Origin: Actinomycetota bacterium
GTDB taxonomy: Bacteria; Actinomycetota; Actinomycetes; Actinomycetales; Microbacteriaceae
DNA length: 53,429 bases
Assembly: GCA_041184065.1 (NCBI GenBank)
Contig: JBEGKM010000001.1
Coordinates: forward strand, 1-53,429
Direction: 5' to 3'
In this document: positions 1-51,080 of the stretch, in pieces
How positions within the stretch are numbered: position 1 is the first letter of the stretch
How the letters are laid out: every line of letters starts with the position of its first letter
Notes under the pieces: generated by a model
Told to the model about the DNA's origin: nothing
Seen by the model: only the letters and a program-made list of their open reading frames with translations
The model's database searches: none
Program-made: the position numbers and the translations under genes

Positions 1-77
1 ACCACCGACACTCCATTGGCGTCATGCCCGGTGACAATACGACGAGGAACAGTGCCCTCTGGCATCTGATCAGTCAT
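1..77 (-). CDS. Cupin-domain protein, N-terminal part only (runs off window edge); FdeH-like
   Basis: Not in the ORF track. Manual translation from the ATG at 77, 2 nt after the monooxygenase stop, gives MTDQMPEGTVPRRIVTGHDANGVSV. RRIVTGHD is a typical N-terminal signature of a cupin-2 subfamily. Confidence 0.7.
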   Translation of the reverse strand, partial: MTDQMPEGTVPRRIVTGHDANGVSV

Positions 78-79
78 GA

Positions 80-1204
80 TTAGACAGGCATGGCTGCAAG
101 TTGCGCGAGAGACTTGCCCATCAACATGCCAGGGTTTGCACCCTCGGTCTCAGGGTGAATCTCCCAGTCGACCAGCTGCATTGATGCGTCAACCACAACG
201 GTCAAGCGCGGCATGCGACGTGCCTGATAGGCGGCCAAGATTTCTTCGATGTTGCCATCTTGAGTAACCATGTCGGCAAGAACCCAGGCGTCTTCTGAAC
301 ACTGTGCGCCACCCTGGGCAATAACCGGTGGGCAAGCGTGAACCGCGTCGCCAATTAGAACTACGCGACCCTGGTGCCAAGGCTGGTCGTTTACATACAA
401 CCACTCGATTTCTTGAAAGTTCATGTAGTCATCGTCAGAGATGTTCTCGCGAATGAAGTCGAACGGGCCGTGGTAGCCCTCCATCAGACGGCGCATTTCG
501 TCGGCATCGCTCAAGCCATTTTCTGGGCGCTGTGGCTTGGTTAGCACGTATGCGTAGCAAAGGTCTTTCGAAATTGGGGTGTAGCCGGCCTTGTACTCTG
601 GGCCACCGTGGAACACAGCCGAGACATCCATTTCTGGAGTGCGCTTGGTAACCACGCGCCAAATGCCAAGACCGGTTGGCTTCTTGTCGTGGGTAATGCC
701 CAACATCTTGCGGGTCTTTGACTTGATGCCGTCGCAGGCAACTACTAGGTCGAAGCTCTCGGTGGTGCCGTTGTTGAAGGTAACGTCAACGTGGTCTGGG
801 TGGTTCTCGAACGACTCCATCGAGGTGCCAAGGCGAACATCAACGCCAAGTTCGTGAATCATGTCGACTAGCACGGTTTGAATGTCTGAGCGAAGGGCTC
901 CCATGGTCGAGTTGAGGTCTTCGCCGCCGGTGTGAGCAACTTGCATCCGAGTCAACAGCTTTCCACTTGCATGGAACATGTCGAAGTCGTCGAAACCGTG
1001 GGCATTTTCAAGGATTCGGTCGAGAGCGCCGATGTTCTTGAACGAGCGAAGGGCGTTGCCCTGAAGGGTAATTCCGTGTCCAACGCCATACCAAACCGGA
1101 GAAATCTCCGCGAGGGTTACCTTTACGCCTTTTTGGGCCAAGGCTACGGCTGCGACGGTTCCGGTGATTCCGCCACCGACAACAAGAACGTTCTTAACTG
1201 ACAT
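80..1204 (-). CDS. Group A FAD-dependent aromatic monooxygenase (FdeE/flavonoid hydroxylase-like)
   Basis: 374 aa with GGGITG dinucleotide motif, DG motif (ACDGIKS), GD motif (LIGDAVH) and AQGG. Confidence 0.88.
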   Translation of the reverse strand: MSVKNVLVVGGGITGTVAAVALAQKGVKVTLAEISPVWYGVGHGITLQGNALRSFKNIGALDRILENAHGFDDFDMFHASGKLLTRMQVAHTGGEDLNSTMGALRSDIQTVLVDMIHELGVDVRLGTSMESFENHPDHVDVTFNNGTTESFDLVVACDGIKSKTRKMLGITHDKKPTGLGIWRVVTKRTPEMDVSAVFHGGPEYKAGYTPISKDLCYAYVLTKPQRPENGLSDADEMRRLMEGYHGPFDFIRENISDDDYMNFQEIEWLYVNDQPWHQGRVVLIGDAVHACPPVIAQGGAQCSEDAWVLADMVTQDGNIEEILAAYQARRMPRLTVVVDASMQLVDWEIHPETEGANPGMLMGKSLAQLAAMPV

Positions 1205-1279
1205 CTGCTCTGATCTCCAATTCGACTAGCGACATTGCTTAGTAAGCCAAAGTTAGTCGAAAAGGCGCAAAAGTTAGAA

Positions 1280-1316
1280 CTAAGGCGGGCGAATGAATGC
1301 CATTCGCCAAAGGCAT
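1280..1316 (-). promoter_or_regulatory. Putative LysR binding sites upstream of the monooxygenase
   Basis: Minus strand ATGC-N7-GAAT (T-N11-A, 1302-1316), a second ATTC-led site 22 bp downstream (1280-1294), and a TAACTT -10-like hexamer at 1250-1255. Confidence 0.55.
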
Positions 1317-1365
1317 ACTTGCCCTTCAGTCGATAGGCCTAAACCAGTGCTGAGGTCGAGAAGTC

Positions 1366-2271
1366 TCAGAGCTCGGGCGAGTTTTCGCCACCGAGAATTT
1401 TGCGCAACCACACGTGAGCGGGATCGGTGTTGTGCGAAGGGTGCCACCACAGGTTTTCGAAGATCTCGATGTGTCCAAATGGCGCCTCGACCCCAATTGT
1501 GTTGGTGCTCTTTGACATTCGAGCGGCCAGCCTCGATGGCACAATTCCAACCAGATCGGTGCCTTCAATGATTGAAGCCATTGGCATGAAAGTTGTGGTC
1601 TTAACGTGCGCCTTGCGCTGAAAGCCAAGTTCGCCGAGTCTGCGGTCGGCCGGGGTTAGGTGGGCCTGACCAAAGTCGACCATGGCTTGAGGTAGGGCTT
1701 TGAAGGCCTCCCAGCTCAACTTGCCATCTTTCAAGGCCGGGTTGTTTTTATCGATCATGCAAACGTAGTGGTCTACGAATAAGTGGATTCTGTCGCCCTC
1801 TACACCGATACCCGGCACAATAACCACGAAGTCGTTGTTCACTAGGTCTCGACCGGCGTCAGTTGGCTCGGCGGGTAAAGGCAAAATATCTATGGTGATG
1901 TGCGGCGCTTCGTTCATTGCCTGAGACAAACGCGGGCGCAACTCGATGGCAGCGTAGTCAGACATCAAAAGGGTGTAGTGCCGGGTTGAGGTTGCCGGGT
2001 CGAAGGCCTCTTGGCTCATCAAGGCATTTTCGATTAGTGGCAAAGTTAGTTGCAACTGAGGAAGCAAAAGTCGGGCAAGTGGCGTTAGCTCGTAATCGCG
2101 ACCCACTCGAACCAAAAGCTCGTCGTTAAATTGCAGGCGCAAGCGACTGAGTGCAGAACTCATTGACGATTGACCCATCGAAATGCGCTCGCCTGCTCGG
2201 GTCACATTCGCCTCTTCAAGCAGCGCGCGCAAAGCGACCAAGAGGTTAAGGTCTTTGCCTGCGAAAGTCAT
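1366..2271 (-). CDS. LysR-family regulator, NodD/FdeR-like
   Basis: DLNLLVALRALLEEANVTRAG HTH, QSSMSSALSRLR and C-terminal WHP..TDPAHVWLR. ATG at 2271 chosen because GGAG lies 6 nt upstream; the track start is 2316. Confidence 0.92.
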   Translation of the reverse strand: MTFAGKDLNLLVALRALLEEANVTRAGERISMGQSSMSSALSRLRLQFNDELLVRVGRDYELTPLARLLLPQLQLTLPLIENALMSQEAFDPATSTRHYTLLMSDYAAIELRPRLSQAMNEAPHITIDILPLPAEPTDAGRDLVNNDFVVIVPGIGVEGDRIHLFVDHYVCMIDKNNPALKDGKLSWEAFKALPQAMVDFGQAHLTPADRRLGELGFQRKAHVKTTTFMPMASIIEGTDLVGIVPSRLAARMSKSTNTIGVEAPFGHIEIFENLWWHPSHNTDPAHVWLRKILGGENSPEL

Positions 2272-2311
2272 GGGCTGCTCCGATGGTGTTGAAACGCGCT
2301 CGCCGTGAAGG

Positions 2312-2348
2312 TTCACCGTTTGAGATAGATACTATTCGACGGAATGCT
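2312..2348 (+). promoter_or_regulatory. Putative LysR binding sites upstream of the dioxygenase
   Basis: TTCA-N7-AGAT (T-N11-A, 2312-2326), ATTC-led site 22 bp later (2334), TAATCT at 2373-2378; lies in the divergent LysR/dioxygenase gap. Confidence 0.5.
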
Positions 2349-2422
2349 GAGTAAAAAAGTTTCGCCTTCGTCTAATCTGAACTAACCAAAGCCAGCATTG
2401 GCACTTTTTTAGGAGATCAACG

Positions 2423-3361
2423 ATGACTCGACGCCTGATTACTCACCTGCGTTACGGCGCATTGGCTATGCCTAACTTTGAAGAAGAACTTGCCTTCATG
2501 ACTCAACACTGGGGTCTGGCACAGGTGCATCGCGAGGGTGACGTTGCCTGGCTTGGCGCCGAGGGAACCCCAGAGCCATTTGTAGTTCGACTTCGCAAAG
2601 GCGAAAAGCGCATCGACCTAGTAGCATTTGGCGCGGCTAACCGTGACGACGTAAATGAGCTTCACTCGCGTCTAGTCGCAAACGGTGTTCAGATCATCCA
2701 TGGCCCACAAGAACTAACCCAGTTTGGTGGCGGCTATGGCATGCGATTCTTCGATAACGAAGGTCGCACAGTTGAGGTTTCGACCGAGGTCGAGCTCAAG
2801 GGGAGCCGCAAGATTCAAGAGCGCGAGGCTATTCCGGTAAAGCTTTCACACTTTGTGGTTAACACCACCGACCTAGCCGGCACCGCCGAATGGTACGTAA
2901 AGAACCTCGACTTCGCGCTTAGCGACAGCCTTTACAGCGACCACATGGGTGACATGATGCACTTCTTGCGCTGCAACAGCGCCCACCACTCTTTTGCTAT
3001 TGCCACCGGCCCACACGCTTCACTGCACCACATCTCGTTTGAGATGCGTGGAGTCGAGGAATGGATGCGAGGAACCGGAAAGATTCTTCGCGCCGGTGCC
3101 CGCATGGTTTGGGGCCCAGGTCGCCACAACGCCGGCGACAACACCTTTGCCTACTTCCTTGACCCAGCGGGCAACACCATCGAGTACACCACCGAGCTTG
3201 GCACCATCGAAGACGAAGACAACTGGCACCCAAGCAAGTTCAACATCGGTGAGCTTTCGACTCAAGACCAGTGGGGAACCGCTCAGCCAATGAGCGAACT
3301 AATCGCCCGCGAATCTTTCAACGACAAAGACCTCGGCCTATTCGTCGCACCTCCGGTTTAA
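2423..3361 (+). CDS. VOC-family extradiol ring-cleavage dioxygenase (FdeC-like)
   Basis: Two VOC domains with metal ligands in LSHFV, LHHISF and IEY, plus WGPGRH and YFLDPAGN motifs; AGGAG RBS. Confidence 0.9.
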   Translation: MTRRLITHLRYGALAMPNFEEELAFMTQHWGLAQVHREGDVAWLGAEGTPEPFVVRLRKGEKRIDLVAFGAANRDDVNELHSRLVANGVQIIHGPQELTQFGGGYGMRFFDNEGRTVEVSTEVELKGSRKIQEREAIPVKLSHFVVNTTDLAGTAEWYVKNLDFALSDSLYSDHMGDMMHFLRCNSAHHSFAIATGPHASLHHISFEMRGVEEWMRGTGKILRAGARMVWGPGRHNAGDNTFAYFLDPAGNTIEYTTELGTIEDEDNWHPSKFNIGELSTQDQWGTAQPMSELIARESFNDKDLGLFVAPPV

Positions 3362-3414
3362 TCTCACCGGCCAGCGTCTGCTGGACTGCATGAATAACTC
3401 AAAGGAGAGTTGAA

Positions 3415-4179
3415 GTGGGTCGTCTCGACAACAAGGTTGCGTTGATCACCGGTATTGGTGGCGGAATGGGCCGGCAGGCGGCACTTACCTTTTCTCGCGA
3501 AGGCGCAAAAATCATTGGTTGCGACCTATTTGAAGAGGGAGCCAACGAAACCGTTCGATTGGTGCGTGAAGCTGGTGGCGAAATCGTGAACTTTGCGCCG
3601 GTTGATTTGTCGAATGCGACTGCCACGGCCAAGTGGGTTGAAGACGCGATTGCGGTTCACGGCAAGGCCGACATTCTTTACAACAACGCCTCCACGCCTA
3701 AGTTTGGCGACATTCAAGATCTTTCGATCGAGGATTGGGATTTTGTCATCAACAACGAACTCAATCTTGTGTTTTATGCGGTGAAGGCCATTTGGCCACA
3801 CTTTATGAAGCACGGCGGTGTGGTTCTGAACATCGGTTCGATTGCGGGCACCAGAGGCGTTGAATTTATGAGTCAAAACGCACACGGCACGGCAAAGGGT
3901 GGCGTGATTTCGTTGACCCAGCAGCTGGCAGCCGAAGGCGCAAAGTATGGCATTCGAGCAGTCTGTGTAAGCCCGGGCTTTATTGTTACCCCATCAACTG
4001 CCTGGTTGGTCGAATCTGGCCCCGAGCCATTCAAAAAGAACATCGCTCGCATTCCACTGGGTCGAGTTGGTCAGCCAGACGACATTGTGAACGCGGCACT
4101 ATTTTTGGCTTCGGATGAAGCTTCTTGGATCACAGGCATCAACCTGGTTGTAGACGGTGGAGGAACGGTTCTCGGATGA
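3415..4179 (+). CDS. Short-chain dehydrogenase/reductase
   Basis: TGIGGGMG, YNNA and VDGG motifs; the YxxxK catalytic motif reads HGTAK. Confidence 0.92.
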   Translation: MGRLDNKVALITGIGGGMGRQAALTFSREGAKIIGCDLFEEGANETVRLVREAGGEIVNFAPVDLSNATATAKWVEDAIAVHGKADILYNNASTPKFGDIQDLSIEDWDFVINNELNLVFYAVKAIWPHFMKHGGVVLNIGSIAGTRGVEFMSQNAHGTAKGGVISLTQQLAAEGAKYGIRAVCVSPGFIVTPSTAWLVESGPEPFKKNIARIPLGRVGQPDDIVNAALFLASDEASWITGINLVVDGGGTVLG

Positions 4180-5561
4180 GCGTGTTCGACGGTTCATTTT
4201 GGCTCAAAGGTGACGAAGGTTTTGAAGAGGCTGCGGTTGGTCGAGTTTTCAACGGCCGTCGCCCTTCGCCGGCCGAGCGTCGCCCCGAGGCCGTGCTGTT
4301 TGCCCAGTCTGACGAAGATCTGATCAAGGCGGTCAAGTTGGCGAAGACGAACGGTTGGTCGCTCGCCATGCGAAGTGGCGGTCACTCATGGGCAGCCTGG
4401 AGTGTGCAAAACGGCACTCTGCTTATCGACATGTCTAGGCTTCAAGATGCAACCTATGACGAGGCAACTGGCATCGCTTCTGCTCGACCTGCCATCAAGG
4501 GTGGCGAGGTTCTCGACCCATTCCTTGAAAAGCACGGTCGCTATTTCAATGGTGGCCACTGCCCAACTGTCGCCATCGGTGGCTTTTTGCTTCAGGGCGG
4601 CCAGGGGTATTGCGCAAGAGGCATGGGTTGGGCCGCTGAGTTTGTCGTTGCGGTTGACGTGCTCACAGCCGAGGGCGAAATCGTTCGTTGCGATGCAAAC
4701 CAGAACCAGGATTTGTATTGGGCCGCACGTGGCGCCGGGCCATCGTTTCCGGGCCTTGTTACGCGCTTTCACCTGCAGACCAAGCCTCGCTATAAGGCCC
4801 CGCACGAAACCGTGCAGATTTTTGAAGTCGATGACTTCAAAGAGTTAATGCAATGGATCTATCAGGTGCACAACGAGTTGGCACCGACGGTTGAATTGGT
4901 CGTGGTTAGCAACTGCCCAATTGATGAAAACGGCAAGCCCGGAAAACGAATTGTTGTGGTCGATGCGTTGGCTTTGGTTGACTCGAAGGAAGAAGCCGAA
5001 ATCGCTCTCGCGCCGATGCGCAAGAATCCGTTGTTGCACAAAGCCTTGGTCAACATCGATTGTGGCGTGACCACTATGGCAGAGCGCAAACGTCAGCAGG
5101 TAGAAGCCAACCCAGAAGGCATGCGCTACTTTGTTGACAACATCTGGGTTGATGGCGACACCGAAGAAATCATCGACGGAATTGCGCCACTGTTCACCGA
5201 TTTGCCCGAGCCTCGGGGCTTCACAATTTGGTTCAGCATGGGTCCTATTCGCGAACTGCCCGACATGGCCTTCAGCATGCAAAGCCCAGGCTATGTTGCG
5301 ACCTACTTGGTTAGCGAAGATGCCTCGCGCGATGCCGAAAACCGTGCCTGGTTGAACGGCGCCATGGCCGGAGCGCAGTCGGTGACCGTTGGTCAATATC
5401 TTGGCGACAGCGACATGACTAACCGTCAGGTCAAGGTCATGGCCGACGAAAACTTTGCAAGACTACAAAAGGTCATCGCTGATCGCGATCCAGAGAACCG
5501 TTTCGTTCGGTATCTGGCCAAAGACCCATCCACCGTTAACAAGAACCACTGGCAAATCTAG
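4176..5561 (+). CDS. FAD-linked oxidase, berberine-bridge-enzyme/VAO-PCMH family
   Basis: RSGGHS, GHCPTVAIGG, DLYWAARGAG and C-terminal DPENRF. Start moved to the ATG at 4176 (ATGA overlap with SDR stop); the track start is 4125. Confidence 0.88.
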   Translation: MSVFDGSFWLKGDEGFEEAAVGRVFNGRRPSPAERRPEAVLFAQSDEDLIKAVKLAKTNGWSLAMRSGGHSWAAWSVQNGTLLIDMSRLQDATYDEATGIASARPAIKGGEVLDPFLEKHGRYFNGGHCPTVAIGGFLLQGGQGYCARGMGWAAEFVVAVDVLTAEGEIVRCDANQNQDLYWAARGAGPSFPGLVTRFHLQTKPRYKAPHETVQIFEVDDFKELMQWIYQVHNELAPTVELVVVSNCPIDENGKPGKRIVVVDALALVDSKEEAEIALAPMRKNPLLHKALVNIDCGVTTMAERKRQQVEANPEGMRYFVDNIWVDGDTEEIIDGIAPLFTDLPEPRGFTIWFSMGPIRELPDMAFSMQSPGYVATYLVSEDASRDAENRAWLNGAMAGAQSVTVGQYLGDSDMTNRQVKVMADENFARLQKVIADRDPENRFVRYLAKDPSTVNKNHWQI

Positions 5562-5569
5562 GAGTCATT

Positions 5570-6058
5570 ATGCGAATTCACATGGGCGCAAACTACGAAG
5601 GCTATGCACTTGGTCGCGAGCTAGAAACTTGGATCAAAGGCCTCGGTCACGAAGTGGTTTGGCACGGCGCCGACGAGTATGACTTTGAAGACGACTATCC
5701 GCTGTTCGCATTCCGCATCGGCCAGGCGGTCATTGCCGATGAAGACGCAGCACTAGAAGTGCGCGGAATTTTGGTTGGCGGCGTAGGTGGCGGCGAAACC
5801 ATAGCAACAAACAAGGTGCCAGGCGCACGTGCGGTCTTCGGTCACTCAGTCGATTTCGTCACCAAGTCGCGTGAACATGCAAACGCGAGCATCCTGGTTG
5901 TTGGCGCATTGAACACGGCGGCTGACGAGGCCAAGGCGATGATTCAGGCAATCATCGATGCAAAATTCACCAATGTTCTTGATGACGCCAGACGCATTGT
6001 TAACACCAACGAATACGAGGCCTCGAAAACCATCGAAGGTTGGATGATCACGGGCTAG
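5570..6058 (+). CDS. Divergent RpiB/LacAB-family isomerase
   Basis: DDYP, GGVGGGE, NKVPGARA and REHANA match actinobacterial RpiB, but several phosphate-binding residues appear substituted. Confidence 0.82.
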   Translation: MRIHMGANYEGYALGRELETWIKGLGHEVVWHGADEYDFEDDYPLFAFRIGQAVIADEDAALEVRGILVGGVGGGETIATNKVPGARAVFGHSVDFVTKSREHANASILVVGALNTAADEAKAMIQAIIDAKFTNVLDDARRIVNTNEYEASKTIEGWMITG

Positions 6059-6062
6059 CCCA

Positions 6063-6102
6063 AACATAGCGGCGGCCTATGTTAGCCATAGCGTCGCGTG
6101 AG
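6063..6102 (+). promoter_or_regulatory. Putative LysR binding sites upstream of the ABM-FAH-ALDH operon
   Basis: Perfect dyad AACATAG-N7-CTATGTT (6063-6083, T-N11-A core); CATAGCG is repeated 22 bp downstream. Confidence 0.62.
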
Positions 6103-6175
6103 ATATAAAAACGTTTCAAAACTGATTCACTAAGAATCAGAAATCGCCAAAGGCGGCGAACCGAAAGGAAACATC

Positions 6176-6469
6176 ATGGCATTTGTATGCAGCGCAACCT
6201 GGGTTGCCAAAGAAGGCAGCGCTCACCTGGTTGCAGAGGCTCTGGGGCACCTGTCACCAGCTTCACGCACCGAGGAGGGCAACATCTACTACCAGGCTTA
6301 CCAAGACCCAGCCGAGCCAAACACCTTCCGCATCTTCGAGGTCTACACCGACGAGGCCGCTTTTAAGGCACACGCCGAGTATGAGCACTTCAAGCAGTGG
6401 GCGTTGGGTCAGGCTATTCCTGCTCTAGAGGTTCGCCAGCGCGACTTCTACGAGACTCTCGACTTCTAA
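6176..6469 (+). CDS. Antibiotic biosynthesis monooxygenase (ABM)/putative quinol monooxygenase
   Basis: 97 aa with SRTEEGNIYY and FRIFEVYTDEAAFKAH, a YgiN/LsrG-like pattern. Confidence 0.88.
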   Translation: MAFVCSATWVAKEGSAHLVAEALGHLSPASRTEEGNIYYQAYQDPAEPNTFRIFEVYTDEAAFKAHAEYEHFKQWALGQAIPALEVRQRDFYETLDF

Positions 6470-6477
6470 GGCCTGCC

Positions 6478-7440
6478 ATGAAAATCGCTCGCTACCTTCA
6501 CAACGGATTTGCTCACGTAGGTGTGGTCAACGACCACGGTCGTTTGCTTAACCTGCCGACTCGCTTGTCGGTGCTCGAGGTTTTGGCTTTGCCAATTCGT
6601 GAGCGCAACCTGATTGAAGCTCAGGCTGGGCGATTGTTTAACACCAGCATCGACAAGGTGCACTTCTTGCCTCCGGTTGAGCCACGTGCAATGCGCGACT
6701 TTGTTGCCTTCGAGGCCCACATCGCCGGCATGAAGAAATCCGAGGGCGGCACCGGCAAAATTCCCCAGGCTTGGTATGACGTGCCCGTGTTCATCTTCAT
6801 GAACCCTTGGTCACTGCTAGACCCAAACGCCGATGTGCCAATGCCTCCACACACCAAGGCCCTCGACTTTGAGCTTGAGGTGGCAGCAATTGTTCTAAAG
6901 CCAGCTCGCGATGTTTCGCTCGAGAACGCCGGTGAGTTCATAGCCGGTTACACGCTGTTCAACGACTGGTCGGCGCGCGATATTCAGCGCCACGAAATGT
7001 CGGTAGGTCTTGGTCCGTCAAAGGGCAAAGACTTTGGCAACACCATGGGCCCATGGATCACCACTCCAGATGAGTTGGCCAAACATCGCAAGGATGACCG
7101 ACTTGACCTAGAGATGACGGTTTCGATCAACGGTGTCGAAATTGGTCGAGACTCGACCAAGAATATGTCTTGGAACTTCGAAGAACTTTTGGTTCACGCC
7201 TCGCGTGATGCGATGGTTGGCCCAGGTGATGTTTTGGCCTCTGGCACTTGCAGTGGCGGTGCGCTTTCAGAAAAGTGGAGCCGCTCGGGAACTCAAAACC
7301 CGCCACCGCTTCAGGTTGGTGACGTGGTCGAAATGACTGTGACTGGCTTGGGCACGATTCGAAACCGTATTGTAGAAACCAAGAGCCCGGGCCACATGGC
7401 GCCGCCGGCTAAACGCACCTACAGCGAGGACATGCTTTGA
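6478..7440 (+). CDS. Fumarylacetoacetate hydrolase family protein (FdeI-like)
   Basis: LDFELEVA, NDWSARDIQ, KGKDF and GDVLASGT. Start moved to ATG 6478 to avoid overlap with the ABM gene. Confidence 0.92.
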   Translation: MKIARYLHNGFAHVGVVNDHGRLLNLPTRLSVLEVLALPIRERNLIEAQAGRLFNTSIDKVHFLPPVEPRAMRDFVAFEAHIAGMKKSEGGTGKIPQAWYDVPVFIFMNPWSLLDPNADVPMPPHTKALDFELEVAAIVLKPARDVSLENAGEFIAGYTLFNDWSARDIQRHEMSVGLGPSKGKDFGNTMGPWITTPDELAKHRKDDRLDLEMTVSINGVEIGRDSTKNMSWNFEELLVHASRDAMVGPGDVLASGTCSGGALSEKWSRSGTQNPPPLQVGDVVEMTVTGLGTIRNRIVETKSPGHMAPPAKRTYSEDML

Positions 7441-8825: not shown

Positions 8826-8858
8826 CCGAGCGGGCATTGTGCCTACTATTGATGCAAC

Positions 8859-10932: not shown

Positions 10933-10944
10933 TAGGTAAAACCT

Positions 10945-10982: not shown

Positions 10983-11013
10983 TTTCCACACTTCCAACAA
11001 ACAGAAAAAGCCC

Positions 11014-39512: not shown

Positions 39513-39532
39513 AGAATCGCACTAGAAGTATC

Positions 39533-42327: not shown

Positions 42328-42329
42328 TC

Positions 42330-43157
42330 ATGTCGTTGCTAAACATTGAAAACGTAGAAGTTACCTACAAGGGCAAGGGTCTAAAGAAAGACTTCAAGGC
42401 ACTAAAGGGTGTCTCTCTAGACATACGCCCAGGCGAGTGTGTCGGTCTGGTTGGCGAGTCTGGTTCTGGAAAGACCACCCTCGGTCGTGCGGTTCTAGGG
42501 CTTGCTCCGGTTACCGCTGGTTCGATCACCCTAGAGGGCCGTGAGATTGCTCACGCCTCTCGTTCAGAGCGAGCCGATCTAGCGCGCGACATCCAGGTTG
42601 TCTTTCAAGACCCTTATTCGTCGCTGAACCCATCGATGTCGATTGAGCAGATTTTGACCGAGCCAATGTTGGTTCGCGACTGGTCGAAGAGCGATGCAAA
42701 CAAGCGCGTTCGTGAACTGCTTGACTCGGTTGGCTTGCCTGCCGATGCCGCAGATCGCCGACCTCGTGAGTTCTCGGGTGGTCAGCGTCAGCGCATCGCA
42801 ATTGCTCGCGCGCTTGCTCTTGACCCAAAGTTGATCGTTTGCGACGAGCCGGTTTCGGCACTTGACCTAACCACTCAGGCCAAGGTTCTTGATTTGTTCC
42901 TTGAGATTCAAGAGCGCACCGGCGTTGCCTATCTATTCATCTCTCACGACCTAGCGGTTGTTCGCCACCTCAGCCACCGTGTTGCTGTGATGTACCAGGG
43001 CGAGATCGTCGAGTGGGGTCAGGGTGAGCAGGTTACGCAAGACCCTCAGCACCCTTACACAAAGCGCTTGATGATGGCTGCTCCGGTTCCAAACCCGGTC
43101 GAGCAGACTGCGCGTCGCGAAGAACGTCGTCGCATGATGGCCGCTGGCCAGATTTAA
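42330..43157 (+). CDS. ABC ATP-binding protein (DppF/OppF-like)
   Basis: GESGSGKT, FQDPYSSLNP, FSGGQRQR and CDEPVSALD. Confidence 0.94.
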   Translation: MSLLNIENVEVTYKGKGLKKDFKALKGVSLDIRPGECVGLVGESGSGKTTLGRAVLGLAPVTAGSITLEGREIAHASRSERADLARDIQVVFQDPYSSLNPSMSIEQILTEPMLVRDWSKSDANKRVRELLDSVGLPADAADRRPREFSGGQRQRIAIARALALDPKLIVCDEPVSALDLTTQAKVLDLFLEIQERTGVAYLFISHDLAVVRHLSHRVAVMYQGEIVEWGQGEQVTQDPQHPYTKRLMMAAPVPNPVEQTARREERRRMMAAGQI

Positions 43158-43190
43158 GTTCTGTCCAAACCTTTTTCAGAAAGCCGCCGC

Positions 43191-44585
43191 ATGTTCAAGC
43201 ACTCAAAGTCGCAGGCAGACATTTCTTCCCTGCCTGCTGACTTTGTGTTTGGCGTTGCCACTGCTGCATACCAAATTGAGGGTGGCGTTCACGAGGGTGG
43301 TCGAGGCATAAGCATCTGGGACACCTTCTCTCACACCGAGGGCAAGACCCTGCACGGCGACACCGGCGACATCGCCTGCGATCACTATCACCGCTGGGCC
43401 GAAGATCTCGACCTCATGCAAAGTCTTGGTCTACAGGCTTATCGCCTCAATTTCTCTTGGGTTCGTTTGCAGCCGACTGGTGAAGGGCCGCTGAACCCTG
43501 AGGGCGTTCAGTTCTATCGTGACATCCTGCAGGGATGCCGTGACCGCGGCATCAAGCCGTTTGTCACCATTTACCACTGGGATCTGCCGCAGGCTCTGCA
43601 AGATAAAGGCGGCTGGCCTGCGCGCGAAACCGCATACAGGTTTGCCGAATATTCGGCATTGTTGATCGATGAATTTGCTGACCTAGCAGCAGATTGGATC
43701 ACCATCAACGAGGCTTGGTGCGTTGCATTCCTCGGCCACAGCTGGGGAATGCAAGCACCAGGTTTCAAAGATGACAAGCTCGCGATTCGTGCAGCACATC
43801 ACACGCTTTTAGCCCATGGTTTGGCGCTTGCCGAGTTCCGCAATAAGGCACCGCAGCTGCGCGTTGGTATCACAAACATTCACGGCAACGTTTCGGCAAA
43901 AACCGATTCTGCCGCCGACCAGGCTGCTGCTGCCAAGCTCGATGTGCGCATGAACAAACTGTTTTTAGAGCCGCTTTATAAGGGCGCATACAGCGAAGAC
44001 GTAATCGCGGTTTTTGAAGCTGACGGGTTGAACGCTGGCGAAATAGAGGGCGCACTCGTTCAGCCTGGTGACCTTGCGATCATCAGTGCACCGAACGACT
44101 TTATTGGTGTGAACCACTATCACAACATGATTGCCTCGGCCGATGAGAATGCGCCTGATGGAATCGGCATGGGTCAGGCAGAGCCAAACGAGCAATCAGC
44201 CTGGAACTGGCCAAACACCCCTTATGCAATCGGTAACATCGTTCGACGCATCAACCGAGAGTATTCAGACCTGCCGATTTACATCACTGAAAACGGCATT
44301 TGCCTGAGCGACTATGCAAACCCTGAGGGTCAAGTTAACGACCCGCACCGAATCGATTATCTAAACGGCTACATTGGCGCGATTGCCGAAGCCGCAAAAG
44401 ACGGAGTGCCGATGGCCGGCTATATGGCCTGGTCGTTCATGGACAACTTTGAATGGGCCGAGGGCTACAACATGCGCTTCGGTTTGGTTTATGTCGACTA
44501 CCCGACTCAAAAGAGAATTCCCAAGCAAAGTGCCTACTGGTACCGCGATCTGATTTCAGAACACAAGAAGAAAGCAGCAAAATAA
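43191..44585 (+). CDS. GH1 beta-glucosidase
   Basis: ATAAYQIEG, YHWDLPQ, TINE acid/base, ITENG nucleophile and DNFEWAEGY. Confidence 0.95.
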   Translation: MFKHSKSQADISSLPADFVFGVATAAYQIEGGVHEGGRGISIWDTFSHTEGKTLHGDTGDIACDHYHRWAEDLDLMQSLGLQAYRLNFSWVRLQPTGEGPLNPEGVQFYRDILQGCRDRGIKPFVTIYHWDLPQALQDKGGWPARETAYRFAEYSALLIDEFADLAADWITINEAWCVAFLGHSWGMQAPGFKDDKLAIRAAHHTLLAHGLALAEFRNKAPQLRVGITNIHGNVSAKTDSAADQAAAAKLDVRMNKLFLEPLYKGAYSEDVIAVFEADGLNAGEIEGALVQPGDLAIISAPNDFIGVNHYHNMIASADENAPDGIGMGQAEPNEQSAWNWPNTPYAIGNIVRRINREYSDLPIYITENGICLSDYANPEGQVNDPHRIDYLNGYIGAIAEAAKDGVPMAGYMAWSFMDNFEWAEGYNMRFGLVYVDYPTQKRIPKQSAYWYRDLISEHKKKAAK

Positions 44586-47044
44586 TGTCAAACCTAGCCG
44601 CCAGAGTAGACGAGCTAACTGCAAAGTTGACCCTCGAAGAGAAGGTCGCACTGCTAACCGGTCGCGACTTCTGGAACACAGTTCCGCTTGAGTCAATTGG
44701 ACTGCGAAACCTGTTGCTGTCTGACGGCCCATCGGGCGTTCGCGGTGAATTCTGGGATGAGCGCGACAACTCGCTGAACCTGCCAAGCGCGACTGCACTT
44801 GGTTCATCTTGGAGCCTGGAGTTGGCTGCAGAATATGGCCGCACGCTGGCTCGCGAAGCTGCCCGCAAGGGCGTTGACGTTGTGCTTGGCCCAACCATCA
44901 ACCTGCACCGCAGCCCACTCGGTGGCCGCCACTTTGAGTGCTTGAGCGAAGATGCCATGCTAACCGGAGCGCTAGCAACCTCTTACACCAAGGGCATGCA
45001 GGCACTTGGCAAGGGTGCTTGTCCTAAGCACTATGTTGCCAACGACTTTGAGACCGACCGCTACACCGTAGATGTAGTTGTTGATGAGCGCACTCTGCGC
45101 GAGCTTTACCTGCGCCCATTCGAAGACGCGGTTGTGGAAGGTGGCGCATGGACAATCATGAGCTCATACAACCGAATCAACGGCACCACGGCGACCGAAA
45201 ACGACTTGCTCAACACTCCACTGCGCACCGAATGGGGATTCGACGGTGTAGTAATCAGCGACTGGACTGCGGTTCGTTCGCTCGAGAGTGCAAAAGCCGA
45301 GCAAGACCTTGTGATGCCTGGCCCAATTGGCCCGTGGGGCGACGCGCTCGTGGCAGCCGTTCGCAACGGAGAAATCGACGAGTCAACAATTGACCGCAAG
45401 ATTGCGCGTTTGATTCTGTTGGCTGTTCGAGTTGGCGCAATTGGCGCCGACGGTGCAACTCCGGCTCAACCTGCCCGTCACAACAACATCGCCGCCGAGG
45501 GTCGCGCTTTTGCTCGCCGCGCGGCTTCGGAGGGCGCAGTTCTTCTTGAAAACGACGGCATTTTGCCAATCGCAGACCTAGCGTCGAAGGCAAGCGTGGC
45601 TTTGATTGGCCACAACGCTAAGGCTGCTCGCACCCAGGGTGGCGGTTCTGCAACCACCTTGCCAGAGGTCGTTGTCACCCCACTCGATGCCTTGGCTGAG
45701 TTGCTGGGCGACAAGCTCACATATTCGGTTGGTGCAGTAGTTCAGCGCGGCATCGCCGAGCTGCCAAAGCCTCAAATCAAGAACCCGATAACGGGAAACC
45801 CCGGCGTGCATGTTGAATTCTTGAGCGAGTCTGGTGAAATCCTGTTCACCGAAGAGCGCCTAGCTAGCAACCTCACCTGGTTGGGCAGCCAGGCGCCGGT
45901 CGAAGAGTCACGTGGCTTGCGACTTCGCACCGTCTACACTCCAGCCGTTTCAGAGACTGCGCTGTTTGGCTTTGCCTCGGTTCAGCCGGTCAAGGTTGAG
46001 CTTGACGGGCAACTCGTGCTCGACGCCAAGTTGACTCCTGAGACTTCAGATATTTTCACAGCTTTGATGGACCCTCCGTTCACCTCATCGTCAATTGACT
46101 TCGTTGCCGGTCGTTCGGTGGCAATCGACATCATCGTTGACCTGCACGGCCGCGAAGGATTGGCTGCGTCGGCTCAGAGCTTCATTTTTGGTTTTGAAAC
46201 CGATCGTTCAAACGAAGCGGCCATGATTGCCGAGGCAGTTGAAGCGGCAAAGGCAGCCGAGTTAGCAATCGTCGTGGTTGGCACCAATGCTCAGGTTGAG
46301 TCAGAGGGCTTTGACCGAAAAGATCTAAAGCTGCCTGGCCGCCAAGATGAGTTGGTTTCTGCGGTAGTTGGCGCTAACCCGAACACCATCGTGATCGTGA
46401 ACTCCGGTTCGCCGGTTCTTATGCCTTGGCGCAAAGATGTAAAGGCCGTACTGGTTTCTTACTTTGGCGGCGAGCAAATGGGCAACGCGCTTGTTGACAT
46501 GCTCACCGGCGCCAGCGAGCCTGGTGGCCGTCTGCCGACCACTTGGCCGGCATCAGAAGCTTCGGTTCCTGTTCTAAACTGCACCCCAGATGCCAACCAC
46601 CAGGTCATCTACGAAGAAGGCATCCACATTGGTTACCGTGCCTGGTTGAAGGCTGGCGCTAAGCCGGCATACGACTTTGGCTATGGTTTGGGTTACACCA
46701 CCTGGCAGGTAGTTTCTGTATCCGGTGGAAACCAGGTTTCGGAAACCAAGAACCTCGAGCTTTCGGTTGAGGTCAAGAACACCGGTGACCGCGCAGGCAA
46801 GCACATCGTTCAGGTTTATGCAGAGCGCAAAGAATCATATGTAGACCGCCCAGTTCGCTGGTTGGTTGGCTTTGCCGAGGTTCACGCTGCAGCCGGTGAA
46901 ACCAAGACCGCGGCAATCACCATTCGCGGACGCGAATTTGCCGACTACAACAACGGTTGGAACTATGAGTCAGGAGAGTTCACTCTTCACATTGGGTCAA
47001 ACGTAAATGACCTTCCGGTTTCATTCAACGTAGTGATGAACTAA
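44585..47044 (+). CDS. GH3 beta-glucosidase with PA14-like insertion and Fn3-like C-terminus
   Basis: SDGPSGVRG, GGRHFECLSED, KHYVAND, ISDW nucleophile and ESEGFDR. Start moved to ATG 44585 (TAATG overlap). Confidence 0.94.
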   Translation: MSNLAARVDELTAKLTLEEKVALLTGRDFWNTVPLESIGLRNLLLSDGPSGVRGEFWDERDNSLNLPSATALGSSWSLELAAEYGRTLAREAARKGVDVVLGPTINLHRSPLGGRHFECLSEDAMLTGALATSYTKGMQALGKGACPKHYVANDFETDRYTVDVVVDERTLRELYLRPFEDAVVEGGAWTIMSSYNRINGTTATENDLLNTPLRTEWGFDGVVISDWTAVRSLESAKAEQDLVMPGPIGPWGDALVAAVRNGEIDESTIDRKIARLILLAVRVGAIGADGATPAQPARHNNIAAEGRAFARRAASEGAVLLENDGILPIADLASKASVALIGHNAKAARTQGGGSATTLPEVVVTPLDALAELLGDKLTYSVGAVVQRGIAELPKPQIKNPITGNPGVHVEFLSESGEILFTEERLASNLTWLGSQAPVEESRGLRLRTVYTPAVSETALFGFASVQPVKVELDGQLVLDAKLTPETSDIFTALMDPPFTSSSIDFVAGRSVAIDIIVDLHGREGLAASAQSFIFGFETDRSNEAAMIAEAVEAAKAAELAIVVVGTNAQVESEGFDRKDLKLPGRQDELVSAVVGANPNTIVIVNSGSPVLMPWRKDVKAVLVSYFGGEQMGNALVDMLTGASEPGGRLPTTWPASEASVPVLNCTPDANHQVIYEEGIHIGYRAWLKAGAKPAYDFGYGLGYTTWQVVSVSGGNQVSETKNLELSVEVKNTGDRAGKHIVQVYAERKESYVDRPVRWLVGFAEVHAAAGETKTAAITIRGREFADYNNGWNYESGEFTLHIGSNVNDLPVSFNVVMN

Positions 47045-47049
47045 CGCCG

Positions 47050-48531
47050 GTGAAGCTGCCTAACCCGCTAATTCCTGGTTTCAACCCAGACCCATCAATT
47101 GTTCGAGTAGGCGAAGATTACTACCTTGCCACCTCGACGTTCGAATACCTGCCGGGCGTTCCGATCTATCACTCGACCGACTTGGTCAACTGGACCTTGC
47201 TCTCTCACGTGGTTACTCGCGAGGGTCAGTTTCAGATGAAGGGTGTGCCGACCGGCGGAGGCGCTTGGGCCCCGACCATTCGTTATCACGATGGCATTTT
47301 TTACGTTGTGATCACCGATGCCATGGGTCGCGGAACCATGATTTTCACAGCCGATAAGCCCGAAGGCCCATGGTCCGACGGCATCGTCACAGATGTTGAC
47401 GGCATTGACCCTGACCTAGCCTGGACGGCTGATGGCACCTGCTACATGACCTTCTCGGGGCTCATCATGCACGGCTCCGAAATGGGCAAGCACCTTGGAA
47501 TTCAGCAGGTTCGAATCGACCTAGCCACCGGCAAAAAGCTCGAGGAGCCGCGCAGCATGTGGAAGGGAACCGGGCTCATGTTTCCGGAGGCCCCCCACCT
47601 TTATGAGATAGACGGCGTTTGGTATCTAATGATTGCCGAGGGCGGAACCGAGCGCGGTCACGGAATTTCTATCGCTCGCGGGGATTCGCCAGAAGGCCCG
47701 TTTGAGGGCGCTCCGAACAACCCAATTTTGAGTGCTCGAAGCACCTCACGCCCGGTTCAAAACACCGGTCACGGAGACTTGGTTCAGACTCCAGATGGCG
47801 GTTGGGCTGTGGTTTGCCTTGGCATGCGCACCCGTGGCATGACCCGCGCGTTCTCATCGCTGGGCCGCGAAACCTTCGCCAGCAATGTGACCTGGGTCGA
47901 TGGTTGGCCGGTGATTGAGCCGATTGAGCTAAATGACGTTTTGCCGGCTCCCGAATTCAAGGATGACTTTTCAGCGCCAGAGCTTGGTGGTGAGTGGCTA
48001 GCCATTCGCCGTCTTGCATCGTCGATGTCGTCAACTGCATCTGGCAGCCTAGTGATCAAGGGTGAAGGTCGAGGCCTAGACCACGAAGCGCCGGCATTTA
48101 TTGGTCGCCGCCAACGCCGCCTCGACGGAATTGTGCGAGCCAATGTAAGTGTTGAGGGCGTGGGCGGATTGACACTTCGCTATGACGAAGCGGCGCATTA
48201 TGACATCGAAGTTTCGGGTGAAAAGATCATCGCTCGTTCGGTGCTCTCTTACACAACCCAAGAATTTGTCGTTGCCAAACCTGCCGGTGACTCGATTACT
48301 TTGTTTGCCAAACTTGACCAGCCAGAGGGCAAAGATTTTCCGTCGATGCAAACCTCTGACATCGTTCGCCTCGGCTATCTAGACGCCGCAGGTGCCGAGG
48401 TTATCGTGGCAAGTTTTGATGGGCGCTACCTTTCAGCCGAAGTCACCTGCTCGTTCACCGGCCGCGTGTTTGGCTTATATTCGGTGCAGGGTCAATTGAC
48501 AGCACATTCATACGAAGAGGTTGCACAGTAG
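47050..48531 (+). CDS. GH43 beta-xylosidase/alpha-arabinofuranosidase
   Basis: GFNPDPS, WAPTIRY, GIDP, PEAPH, AEGGT, GHGDL and LGRET. Confidence 0.92.
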   Translation: MKLPNPLIPGFNPDPSIVRVGEDYYLATSTFEYLPGVPIYHSTDLVNWTLLSHVVTREGQFQMKGVPTGGGAWAPTIRYHDGIFYVVITDAMGRGTMIFTADKPEGPWSDGIVTDVDGIDPDLAWTADGTCYMTFSGLIMHGSEMGKHLGIQQVRIDLATGKKLEEPRSMWKGTGLMFPEAPHLYEIDGVWYLMIAEGGTERGHGISIARGDSPEGPFEGAPNNPILSARSTSRPVQNTGHGDLVQTPDGGWAVVCLGMRTRGMTRAFSSLGRETFASNVTWVDGWPVIEPIELNDVLPAPEFKDDFSAPELGGEWLAIRRLASSMSSTASGSLVIKGEGRGLDHEAPAFIGRRQRRLDGIVRANVSVEGVGGLTLRYDEAAHYDIEVSGEKIIARSVLSYTTQEFVVAKPAGDSITLFAKLDQPEGKDFPSMQTSDIVRLGYLDAAGAEVIVASFDGRYLSAEVTCSFTGRVFGLYSVQGQLTAHSYEEVAQ

Positions 48532-49503
48532 ATGTCGGTTGAACCCTGGTCAGTTGATCTGATTGCCCCGAGATATCGAGTAATCACCGACAACGACTAT
48601 TCGGGCGATCCAGACGGCCTGGTTCAACTAGCTCAAGAGCTGCTTAGCCCAAGCACCGACACTGTCGCAGTAATTGGCACCCACCTAAGACTTGGCGACC
48701 CGTGGGGTGCCTCTGATGACACACCTGCCGAAGCCGTGGCTGCTGCCGAAAAAATTGTGGACTTATGTGGTCTGACAGGAAAAGTGCCAGTCCTCAAGGG
48801 TGCGATTCCGCCTTTGGCCGATCGCAAAACTCCCAACGATTCAGCAGGAGTGCAGGCAATCATTCGCGAAGCAATGCGCGATGACACCGATCTTCCACTA
48901 TTGGTGGTTTGCGGCGCCAGCCTGACCGAAATCGCATCAGCCTGGTTGATCGAACCAAGAATTGCCGAGCGATTGACAGTGGTGTGGATTGGCGGTCACG
49001 AGCACACCGGCCTGGCCAAAGCCCCACCAGAGGGCACCGACATGGAGTACAACCTGCACATCGACCCAATTGCTGGTCAGGTTGTTTTTAACGACTCGAA
49101 TTTGAAAATTTGGCAGTTTGCCCGCGACACCTATCGTCAGGTCATGGCAAGTCGAGCCGAACTCTACGTTCGCATGCGAAGTCAAGGAGAACTTGGCCGT
49201 CACCTCTTCGACAGCCTCGGCCAGGTTTCCAACCTGGTTGCCGGATTTGGAATGTCAACCGGAGAGGTTTACATACTCGGCGATAGCCCTCTCGTTCTGG
49301 CTTCGGCTCTGCAGGCAAGTTTTCAGCCCGACACTGCATCGAGCGCATGGGTAACCAAGCCTTGCCCAAACATTCTCGACTCGGGACTCTATGAAGAAAA
49401 CCCCGCAGGCCGAGACCTGCGTGTCTTCACCCGGGTAGATTCTCGACTCTTGCTCGAAGACCTGTATGCCAAACTAGAGATGCATGCGGCCGGTGTTCGC
49501 TAA
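48532..49503 (+). CDS. Nucleoside-hydrolase-like protein (IU-NH fold)
   Basis: N-terminal DNDYSGDPD aspartate cluster, VWIGG, EYN and LGDSP; starts immediately after the GH43 stop. Confidence 0.72.
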   Translation: MSVEPWSVDLIAPRYRVITDNDYSGDPDGLVQLAQELLSPSTDTVAVIGTHLRLGDPWGASDDTPAEAVAAAEKIVDLCGLTGKVPVLKGAIPPLADRKTPNDSAGVQAIIREAMRDDTDLPLLVVCGASLTEIASAWLIEPRIAERLTVVWIGGHEHTGLAKAPPEGTDMEYNLHIDPIAGQVVFNDSNLKIWQFARDTYRQVMASRAELYVRMRSQGELGRHLFDSLGQVSNLVAGFGMSTGEVYILGDSPLVLASALQASFQPDTASSAWVTKPCPNILDSGLYEENPAGRDLRVFTRVDSRLLLEDLYAKLEMHAAGVR

Positions 49504-49565
49504 GCGATACCTGTAAGTTCAATTCCTTGCCGTGTGGCCCATGGCATCAAAGTTAGGCTCGAGAC

Positions 49566-51080
49566 ATGTCTCAACAAAAACCAGCAGATTCTGTCGCGCC
49601 TTCGCAGCCCCCGGTGCTTGAAAAGCTGCCGCACTCGAGCTTCGTCATCATCACAATTTTGCTGGGTGCAGCCTTTGTGACGAACCTCAACGAGACCATT
49701 CTCGGTGTGGCTCTGCCGCAGATCATGGCTGACCTAAACATTCAGCCAAGCACCGGCCAGTGGCTAAACACGGCGTTCTTGCTAACCATGGCCACCATCA
49801 TTCCAACCATGGGTTGGCTGCAACTGCGCTTCAGCACCCGCCGCCTATACGTTTGGGCAACTGCCATTTTCTCGGTTGGAACCCTGGTTGGCGGGCTAGC
49901 CCCAACCTTCGAAATTCTGCTGAGCGCCCGCATTCTTCAGGCGGCCGGCACCGCTGTCATGTTTCCTTTGATGATCACAACCATGATGGTTTTGGTTCCA
50001 ATTAACCTTCGCGGTCGCGTGATGGGAAACATTGGAATCGTGATGTCGGTGGCACCAGCTCTTGGCCCAGCGGTTTCGGGCCTGATTCTCAACTTCTTTG
50101 GTTGGAGATGGTTGTTTTGGCTAATTTTGCCAATCGCCGTTTTTGCTTGCATCGGGGGAGGTCGCAAGATTGTTTCGCTTGGCGATCACGAAAAGGCAAA
50201 GCTAGACATATTCTCGGTTCTGCTTTCAGCGGTTGCATTCGCTGGCCTAATCTATGGCCTGTCAAGCTTTGCCGAGGCTGCTCGAGGCACTGTCGAATTC
50301 TCACCTTGGATTCCAACCCTGATTGGTGCAGGCGTGATGGTCTACTTCGTGCTGCGTCAGTTGCGCCTTGAGAAGCAGGGCAAGGCTTTTCTTGATCTAA
50401 CAATTTTCAAGGTCAAGTCATACGCGGTTTCGCTTGGTCTTATGGCAATCGCCATGCTGTATCTATTTGGCATTGGAATTTTGGTGCCGATCTATGTTCA
50501 GCAGTCGCTTGGCATGACGCCGCTCGAGACCGGCTTTATTCTGTTGCCAGGTGGTTTAGCCATGGGCTTGCTGAGCCCTGTCATTGGGCGGCTGTTCGAC
50601 AAGGTGGGTTCTCGAAAGCTGCTGATTCCAAGCTCATTTGGTGTCTCGGCGGCGATTTGGTACATGGCCACCTTCGATGCGCAAACCAGCTTTGTAGAGG
50701 TTTTGATTGCAAACTCGGCGCTCATGATCTCGCTCGGCTTCATGTTTACACCCCTCTTTTCGGTCTCGATGATGCGGGTTCCAATGCATCAGTATTCGCA
50801 CGGAAGCTCTATCACCGGTGCGACCCAGCAGGTATTCGGTGCCGCGGGCACCGCCTTGTTCATCACAATTCTTACGATTCAGGGCCTGGCTGCCACCAAA
50901 GCGGGCGCTACCGCACAAGAATCGGTTGCTGCCGGCGTTCACGCAGCATTCTTGGTTGGCGCAATAATTTCGGTTGTGGCCGTAGCTATGGCTTTTTGGC
51001 TTGAAGACTCAAAGAAACTGATTGCTCAAGCGGAGGCTGCTGGCGAGGGTGCTCCGATGGCTGCGTCTGGCGCACACTAG
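49566..51080 (+). CDS. DHA2-family MFS efflux transporter (LmrB-like)
   Basis: LNETILGVALP, GQWLNTAFLL, RILQAAG, APALGP and WRWLF; 14-TM-type length. Confidence 0.9.
   Translation: MSQQKPADSVAPSQPPVLEKLPHSSFVIITILLGAAFVTNLNETILGVALPQIMADLNIQPSTGQWLNTAFLLTMATIIPTMGWLQLRFSTRRLYVWATAIFSVGTLVGGLAPTFEILLSARILQAAGTAVMFPLMITTMMVLVPINLRGRVMGNIGIVMSVAPALGPAVSGLILNFFGWRWLFWLILPIAVFACIGGGRKIVSLGDHEKAKLDIFSVLLSAVAFAGLIYGLSSFAEAARGTVEFSPWIPTLIGAGVMVYFVLRQLRLEKQGKAFLDLTIFKVKSYAVSLGLMAIAMLYLFGIGILVPIYVQQSLGMTPLETGFILLPGGLAMGLLSPVIGRLFDKVGSRKLLIPSSFGVSAAIWYMATFDAQTSFVEVLIANSALMISLGFMFTPLFSVSMMRVPMHQYSHGSSITGATQQVFGAAGTALFITILTIQGLAATKAGATAQESVAAGVHAAFLVGAIISVVAVAMAFWLEDSKKLIAQAEAAGEGAPMAASGAH

Follow-up and report, generated by a model that had tools for sequence, protein, structure and literature searches.

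The 53,429-nucleotide contig JBEGKM010000001.1 (the window throughout; it is the whole of contig C1 of a 1.07 Mb Microbacteriaceae assembly that is 62% complete) is part of a variable island that lies between purM and fprA and reaches beyond the left end of the window. Four modules lie on it: a ring-cleavage module with a sugar-type ATP-binding cassette (ABC) importer and GH78 (module 1, 80-15184); a cre cassette with an IclR regulator gene and creJ-I-H-(extra HD)-G-F-E-D-C (module 2, 15227-25478); a rhamnose module with a CitE-like lyase, an esterase, LldD, GH78, rhaB/D/I and LacI (module 3, 25506-37115); and a glycoside-import module with TetR, an Opp-type ABC importer, GH1, GH3, GH43, a nucleoside-hydrolase-like protein and a DHA2 MFS protein (module 4, 37159-51080). 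The best explanation, with a probability of roughly 55%, is that the linked ring, rhamnose and glycoside modules serve the use of plant phenolic glycosides, most likely of flavonoid type, and that cre is an optional cassette feeding 4-hydroxybenzoate in parallel. Gene content, linkage, presence or absence of the cassette and co-occurrence across genomes are direct observations; flavonoid-type glycosides are a best guess at the substrate, and the ring is likely opened by an apparently undescribed enzyme set. The four modules do not form a single obligate pathway.

Freshwater actinobacteria with small genomes are commonly viewed as users of simple sugars and amino acids. If the reading given here is true, an island of over 53 kb with a patchy distribution, in ~7% of the genus genomes (12/182), would give them a direct role in the turnover of leaf-litter polyphenols, and it would be a testable actinobacterial counterpart of the fde and ifc clusters of Proteobacteria, with three uncharacterised enzymes (a dioxygenase clade, a BBE oxidase and an RpiB-like protein). 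Annotation by way of FdeC orthology is likely to overlook the ring module. The cre and rhamnose parts are ordinary, known systems.

Linkage of the ring-cleavage and sugar modules

Most genomes in the comparisons are incomplete metagenome-assembled genomes (MAGs); genome handles (G) and named loci (L) may overlap, and their counts are not summed. Among 182 genomes of the genus, the dioxygenase of module 1 was found in 12, every one of which also carries at least one of RhaI (9 genomes), GH78 (10) and the Opp binding protein (9). The 12 fall into ~5 groups, interleaved with negatives, on a recA+gyrB tree on which 29 genomes were placed; because there are only ~5 groups and the deep nodes are weak, the Fisher P values exaggerate the support for co-occurrence. 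A single contig (G053:C5) holds the ring module, ABC importer, first GH78 (GH78a), CitE, esterase, lldD, second GH78 (GH78b), rha, TetR, Opp, GH3 and GH43. In the window, GH78a lies directly downstream of the ring operon and its importer on the same strand, and elsewhere a cupin/SDR submodule accompanies rha or GH78 genes (G100:C8, G188:C22, G070:C39). An earlier note on this DNA had proposed the four modules as one system and a synteny search for their co-occurrence. The ring, rhamnose and glycoside-import modules are indeed linked and co-inherited in the genus; cre does not share this, and the linked order of all four was seen in no locus besides the window and, to the extent that its sequence reaches, L121.

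The inventory below was made by Pfam and NCBIfam scans of 43 window open reading frames (ORFs), and every gene that the earlier note had named is in its place. The modules themselves stood, as did their separate regulation, except that there are five regulators rather than four.

1-77, minus strand: cupin 5′ fragment in the FdeH/IfcD-type position; its 25 codons are nearly identical to the N-terminus of the G108 cupin
80-1204, minus: FAD monooxygenase, FdeE/IfcA-like, predicted ring hydroxylase (PF01494; NF005313 at 368.6 bits, cut-off 372)
1366-2316, minus: LysR regulator 1 (family scan)
2423-3361, plus: VOC extradiol-type dioxygenase outside the FdeC clade (PF00903; PDB 3b59, E 5e-61; His/His/Glu-type motifs aligned)
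3415-4179, plus: SDR1, which co-travels with the FAD oxidase
4176-5561, plus: BBE/EncM-fold FAD oxidase (the ORF finder starts at 4125; the alignment favours 4176)
5570-6058, plus: RpiB-fold protein
6176-6469, plus: ABM-family small protein
6397-7440, plus: FAH-family hydrolase, FdeI-like family (true start probably near 6478)
7437-8825, plus: aldehyde dehydrogenase (ALDH) 1
8859-9782, plus: LysR regulator 2
9976-12805, plus: sugar-type ABC importer (binding protein, permease, ATPase)
12830-15184, plus: GH78 alpha-L-rhamnosidase A (GH78a), without signal peptide
15185-25505, plus: optional cre cassette (IclR, P450 CreJ, CreI, CreH, HD1, CreG, ferredoxin, reductase, HD2 (CreD), CreC)
25506-26339, minus: CitE/HpcH-family lyase
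26465-27412, minus: hormone-sensitive-lipase-family esterase
27419-28657, minus: LldD-like FMN L-lactate dehydrogenase
28668-31316, minus: GH78 alpha-L-rhamnosidase B (GH78b), 33% identical to A
31313-35966, minus: rhaB, rhaD (bifunctional) and rhaI, L-rhamnose catabolism (TIGR02635 and TIGR02632 above cut-off, TIGR02627 below)
35993-36006: putative LacI-type palindromic operator upstream of rhaI (motif conservation)
36084-37115, plus: LacI regulator
37159-37809, minus: TetR regulator
38016-43157, plus: Opp/family-5 ABC importer (no PDB match at E<=1e-25)
43191-48531, plus: GH1, GH3 and GH43 glycosidases, predicted cytoplasmic (GH1 with both catalytic Glu motifs)
48532-51080, plus: nucleoside-hydrolase-like protein and DHA2-family MFS exporter
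51135-53404: core flank with fprA-like reductase, DUF3073 and crcB; right border of the island

The rhamnose genes agree with known actinobacterial L-rhamnose loci (RhaI, RhaB, bifunctional RhaD, LldD, LacI, GH78) in family models, order and conserved LacI operator; RhaI and RhaD score above their cut-offs and RhaB below (424 versus 528), and 10 of the 12 regions upstream of rhaI contain the operator with at most one mismatch. Unlike those loci, the copy on the island is embedded between aromatic modules and the Opp/TetR glycosidase operon. No LacI operator shared across the modules was found, the rhaI site being unconserved upstream of the others; conservation of a two-mismatch site ahead of the Opp binding-protein gene is confined to close relatives, the window has 7 such sites, and shared LacI regulation was rejected. 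The glycosidases lack N-terminal hydrophobic segments or signal-peptide-like N-termini and both binding proteins have such segments, so hydrolysis would follow import. Since IfcA is inactive on glycosides according to PMC11069340, deglycosylation would have to precede attack on the ring.

Several observations weigh against the reading preferred here. Sugar genes are also present in 12 of the 170 genus genomes without the dioxygenase (RhaI 12, GH78 7, binding protein 4; the binding-protein count of 13 genomes excludes five with a best match only 35-38% identical), and the genomes compared are kin rather than independent, mostly incomplete, and joined by weak deep nodes. The ring module occurs without GH78 in four of the five genomes examined outside the genus. 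UxaC is present in 4/4 relatives examined, and pectic sugars are therefore possible GH78 substrates. The dioxygenase falls outside the FdeC/IfcB clade, with 22-26% identity to 120 FdeC-clade proteins (the clade being taken as the large one that holds a Massilia dioxygenase and a JGI-named FdeC); its nearest kin outside the module (56-57%) belong to Corynebacterium and Rhodococcus clusters that contain other hydroxylases and do not resemble fde. Lastly, cre adjoins ring-module genes in three arrangements: that of the window and L121; that of G325, G386 and G243, which belong to another genus and in which no GH78 was found; and that of G066:C52, L126, L166, L170 and L171, where it abuts the cupin/SDR/oxidase submodule. 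Three such arrangements exceed the expectation for a purely independent cassette.

The absence of GH78 in other genera and the presence of UxaC would suit the chief alternative, in which independent modules merely cohabit a hot spot, sharing site and habitat only, the sugar genes acting on oligosaccharides of pectin, hemicellulose or exopolysaccharide or on saponins and the ring module on free phenolics. The slot between purM and DUF3073 is variable, since it spans ~4-18 kb in five complete genomes and exceeds 53 kb in this locus; individual genes are exchanged (GH1 is absent in G053 and G106); the five regulators are separate, with the shared operator not found; and in G100 and G188 the monooxygenase and dioxygenase genes are on a different contig from rha. 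Cohabitation nevertheless seems unlikely, if still worth some weight, given the sugar genes in all 12 ring-module genomes and ~5 lineages, the position of GH78a directly behind the ring operon and importer, and the cupin/SDR submodule that stays with rha or GH78. Furthermore, GH88/GH105 were found in 0/5 genomes examined, and the scan of the window found no uronate or polysaccharide-lyase genes.

The CitE-like lyase gene is beside the ring module in several genomes; it is present in 40 of the 182 genus genomes, some without any module, and was set aside as evidence for a specific side-chain lyase. In L075:7576-10862 (G144:C81), genes for SnoaL, a xylose-isomerase-like TIM barrel and a GMC oxidoreductase adjoin GH78-lldD, a set that we take to resemble those for oxidation and cleavage of C-glycosides and that would suit flavonoid C-glycosides.

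The ring-cleavage enzymes and a probable convergence on 4-hydroxybenzoate

The ring module is a recurring set, whole or partial in 27 named loci: [C-C hydrolase, SDR3, small VOC, cupin, monooxygenase]-LysR-[VOC dioxygenase, SDR1, FAD oxidase, RpiB-like, ABM, FAH, ALDH, LysR]. The records are from Rhodoluna, Aurantimicrobium, Nakamurella, Demequina, Agromyces, Glutamicibacter and Aeromicrobium, with cultured carriers including Glutamicibacter uratoxydans ZF50, Demequina pelophila and Agromyces sp. Soil535. The module is rare both in the family (8/300 genomes) and in the genus (the 12 of 182 genomes above). In this genome the left end of the window cuts module 1 within the cupin gene, bases 1-77 being its first 25 codons, and the C-C hydrolase is on another contig, C128.

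The label "fde-like" holds for the gene types and fails for orthology of the dioxygenase. In PMC11069340, the fde list runs from fdeA to fdeJ; the gene types of fde and ifc are monooxygenase, VOC, alpha/beta hydrolase, cupin and FAH; the identities are 36% for FdeE-IfcA, 66% for FdeC-IfcB and 48% for FdeB; and IfcA homologues are reported in Proteobacteria only. Fde-type plasmid clusters were used as proxies, rather than the FdeE and FdeC sequences themselves. The monooxygenase is 35-36% identical to these proxies and just below the NF005313 cut-off. The hydrolase on C128 is 74% identical to its counterpart in G100, which is 45-47% identical to the proxies; it is an FdeB-type alpha/beta C-C hydrolase with DHPON hydrolase as its top PDB match. 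The proxy identities (36% and 45-47%) are thus on a par with those between fde and ifc. The hydrolase family takes in DHPON hydrolase and a yellowish-green-1-like protein, which points to general acyl-ring C-C cleavage rather than flavonoids alone. On a quick tree with long branches, the dioxygenase forms a separate actinobacterial branch relative to the FdeC clade. By analogy, the ring module likely works in the manner of the fde and ifc clusters without belonging to them.

Compared with the naringenin A-ring meta pathway of Herbaspirillum seropedicae SmR1 (fde) and the daidzein cluster of Variovorax V35 (ifc), the island shares these gene types: FAD monooxygenase, VOC dioxygenase, DHPON-hydrolase-like protein, cupin, FAH and LysR. 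It differs in its dioxygenase, in the absence of Rieske FdeD, cyclase FdeG, FdeA and FdeJ from the window, in the addition of SDR and BBE oxidase, RpiB-like, ABM, ALDH and small VOC genes, and in being actinobacterial and linked to glycosidases and rhamnose genes. Neither Rieske FdeD nor cyclase FdeG turned up in the 43 proteins of the window (this genome's left part of the locus is unassembled), nor beside the module in relatives in the ORFs scanned (108/193, and a further 28), save for a VanA-type oxygenase in L104. Sphingomonad clusters (Novosphingobium pLA3, PP1Y Mpl; PDB 3b59, 3es1) have the monooxygenase-VOC-hydrolase core in common with the island and contain the closest proteobacterial dioxygenase (38%); these clusters, of the order monooxygenase-VOC-hydrolase-cyclase-FAH, have TonB receptors and a cyclase, whereas the island has ABC importers. 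No characterised substrate was found for them in the literature, and no GH78 match within 20 kb on either side of the fde-type core region of PP1Y. A literature search of partial coverage, by which absence from print is unproven, yielded no account of the locus or of any actinobacterial fde-type cluster, and nothing pairing Rhodoluna with polyphenol. In PMC12055944, a Microbacterium monooxygenase is labelled fdeE by annotation only.

A cupin beside the monooxygenase, a candidate FdeH-type protein, is present in relatives and as the 5′ fragment in the window; that of relatives matches PDB 3es1 (E 1e-29), and a role as quercetinase was rejected, the match to YxaG being only E 0.002. The FAD oxidase has the EncM/BBE fold (TM ~0.8) with invariant His70 and Cys129, presumably a motif for a likely bicovalent flavin. 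The RpiB-like protein lacks the N-terminal His and C-terminal Arg-His motifs of the housekeeping copy (C117), motifs that we take to be phosphate-binding; its sequence suggests that it is likely a non-phosphate isomerase, and it is a candidate isomerase of ring-cleavage products. In most of the loci examined, an RpiB-fold gene lies at or close to that of the dioxygenase or oxidase. The protein has a conserved C-terminal extension, and the housekeeping motifs are lost in most homologues. Atlas and SDR searches named no substrate. The SDR3-small VOC-cupin/SDR1-BBE oxidase submodule moves apart from the monooxygenase-dioxygenase pair and joins rha or cre (G100:C8, G066:C52, L126, L166, L170, L171). 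In Agromyces sp. Soil535 (L104:1-3350), a VanAB-type O-demethylase and a distant CreH-like kinase (35%) stand beside the ring module.

The distribution of PobA suggests where the ring module leads. PobA occurs in 12 of the 182 genus genomes: 10 of the 12 with the ring module, 5 of the 6 with cre and none of the 167 with neither, or 12 of the 15 with at least one. Seven have the ring module and PobA with no cre match, and four out of five additional ring-module genomes from the family carry PobA as well. The pobA-pca genes abut the ring module in G100, G188 and L106, as pobA/lig does in G386; the genome of the window has pobA-ligKUJIA on contig C8. Because PobA is found only with the ring module or cre, and in seven genomes without cre, the two likely converge on 4-hydroxybenzoate in parallel. 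Such a product would imply that the substrate contains a p-hydroxyphenyl ring, a feature of common flavonoids.

The proposed route would start with intact glycosides taken in by the two ABC importers; from their families and localisation, the cytoplasmic GH78, GH1, GH3, GH43 and esterases would then remove the sugars. Rhamnose would be consumed by rhaIBD and LldD, as is established for these families. By analogy with fde/ifc, the monooxygenase would hydroxylate a resorcinol or phloroglucinol ring, the VOC dioxygenase would cleave it, and the cupin, C-C hydrolase and FAH would process the ring-opened product. Co-occurrence suggests that the p-hydroxyphenyl remainder may become 4-hydroxybenzoate, to be metabolised by PobA and protocatechuate 4,5-cleavage (C8). 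Separately, cre would phosphorylate and oxidise alkylphenols to 4-hydroxybenzoate, as established for the Corynebacterium enzymes.

A bolder proposal, which is doubtful, is that streamlined freshwater actinobacteria carry a complete undescribed route from flavonoid glycosides to central metabolism, whose enzymes include a dioxygenase outside the FdeC clade, a BBE oxidase with bicovalent flavin and an RpiB fold put to new use, and that some strains couple cre to it by phosphorylating a phenolic residue of the pathway; coupling of this kind would account for cre beside ring genes in three arrangements. In a further reading, the architecture would be as proposed and the aglycone not a flavonoid but some polyketide phenol such as a stilbene, dihydrochalcone, chromone or acyl- or alkylresorcinol. 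The non-FdeC dioxygenase, the lack of Rieske or cyclase genes in the window, the BBE oxidase, SDR and RpiB-like genes foreign to the fde list and the kinship of the hydrolase would all fit such a compound. It is quite improbable, however, because the strict co-occurrence with pobA implies a p-hydroxyphenyl product, which simple alkylresorcinols do not contain, and two rhamnosidases with glucosidases suit the rutinosides and rhamnosides of flavonoids, as is well established.

The optional cre cassette

The 10.3 kb cassette was rightly called cre-like: it has the genes of Corynebacterium glutamicum creJIHGFEDC in the same order (gene list and order from PMC7764795). It differs in having an extra HD phosphohydrolase where one HD is listed for C. 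glutamicum, and in being a polymorphic cassette inside a larger island. The split dikinase CreHI is recognisable by 1082 bits to NF006150 (cut-off 650), a PPDK_N partner and a phospho-His motif. The P450 matches PDB 5xjn/5gwe, which we take to be CreJ, at E 1e-188 (next best 6e-76) and is accompanied by Fer2 and reductase genes; CreG, CreD and CreC are present in conserved order. Two HD phosphohydrolases (20307-21011 and 23351-24013 in the window; 39% identical) are found in freshwater cre cassettes.

The cassette is optional at this site. The order is GH78a-GH43-CitE in G053, which has no CreH match anywhere (91% complete, 6 contigs), and GH78a-GDSL-CitE in G098 (G098:C36). Two contigs of metagenome run X5 join base 15180 to 25506, skipping cre exactly; this joint is taken as the allele of a close relative because it aligned at 85% likeness, with 63 letters on the shorter side. 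The filled allele is independently backed by contigs of runs X3 and X4 that bridge both junctions and by L120 and L121, which repeat the order. Read-depth differences over cre are not usable as copy numbers.

CreH was found in 6 of the 182 genus genomes and in 17 of 270 family genomes, 12 of the 17 having no dioxygenase match. In the complete genome G396, cre is far from the ring module and 25 kb from pobA. A metagenome survey yielded 25 loci, out of 80, with a close CreH and at least 11 kb, some possibly from redundant populations; pobA/lig is nearby in 13, ring-module genes in 7 (one via CitE only) and sugar genes in 2. With 4-hydroxybenzoate as a common sink, the clustering of cre with the ring module would be a clustering of feeders to one sink.

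The earlier note had made cre the last step of a single four-module pathway, oxidising a 4-substituted phenol that remains after ring cleavage; this is the least probable reading, favoured by the three independent arrangements, by CreH in 3/12 ring-module genomes versus 3/170 others and by G066 and G144, which hold all four modules on separate contigs, and opposed by the empty-site alleles (G053, G098, X5), the seven genomes with ring module and pobA and no cre, the distances in G396, the 12 CreH-positive family genomes without a dioxygenase match, the other-genus genomes in which cre abuts a ring module lacking GH78, and the products of known aerobic fde/ifc pathways, which according to PMC11069340 are not alkylphenols.

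Two kinds of related kinase were observed. A second CreH-like kinase, 45-47% identical, is present in G243, G287, G386, G325, G200 and G293, and more distant ones (52-54%) stand beside tandem VOC dioxygenases in place of the P450 in L180, L189, L190, L192, L194, L197 and L199.

Setting and borders of the island

The host was correctly predicted to be a small-genome freshwater actinobacterium: relatives in the genus have genomes of 0.8-1.6 Mb, and the metagenome runs containing window DNA are freshwater or aquatic, with one unlabelled. The closest named locus is L088, a Rhodoluna sp. MAG with equal gene order and a dioxygenase 96% identical. Judged by this gene of the island rather than by a marker gene, the host is probably a Rhodoluna. 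An artefact of binning or assembly was rejected, since all ten 5-kb windows of the contig are inside the tetranucleotide range of the bin (15th-73rd percentile, 112 windows), the core genes fprA-DUF3073-crcB at the right end are syntenic with G013 and G001, and L120 and L121, from other assemblies at ~87% nucleotide identity, repeat cre-CitE-esterase-lldD-GH78, L121 also having ALDH-LysR-GH78 to the left of cre.

The island of G053 starts at purM. In the genome of the window, purF-purM-esterase is on C132 and hydrolase-GH1-like-Gfo/Idh on C128, both stretches being 88-91% identical to their counterparts in G053 and G098. Scans of the window found no integrase or transposase among the ORFs, no tRNA and no Rfam match, and those for promoters and terminators gave results at or below chance. 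A nucleotide search of bases 1-20000 against 30 relatives, an insensitive one, returned short conserved-motif matches only. In metatranscriptomes, contigs span portions of the ring module in three runs and portions of cre in one; they are contigs alone, from which expression is not inferable.

An Abi_2-like gene adjoins purM at the left border of the island in G053 (L049:8500-9231), and C132:2557-3273 in the genome of the window is an ORF of the same size. On C6 of that genome (5266-16693), an open frame of at least 3809 codons runs off the contig beside a second nucleoside-hydrolase-like gene.

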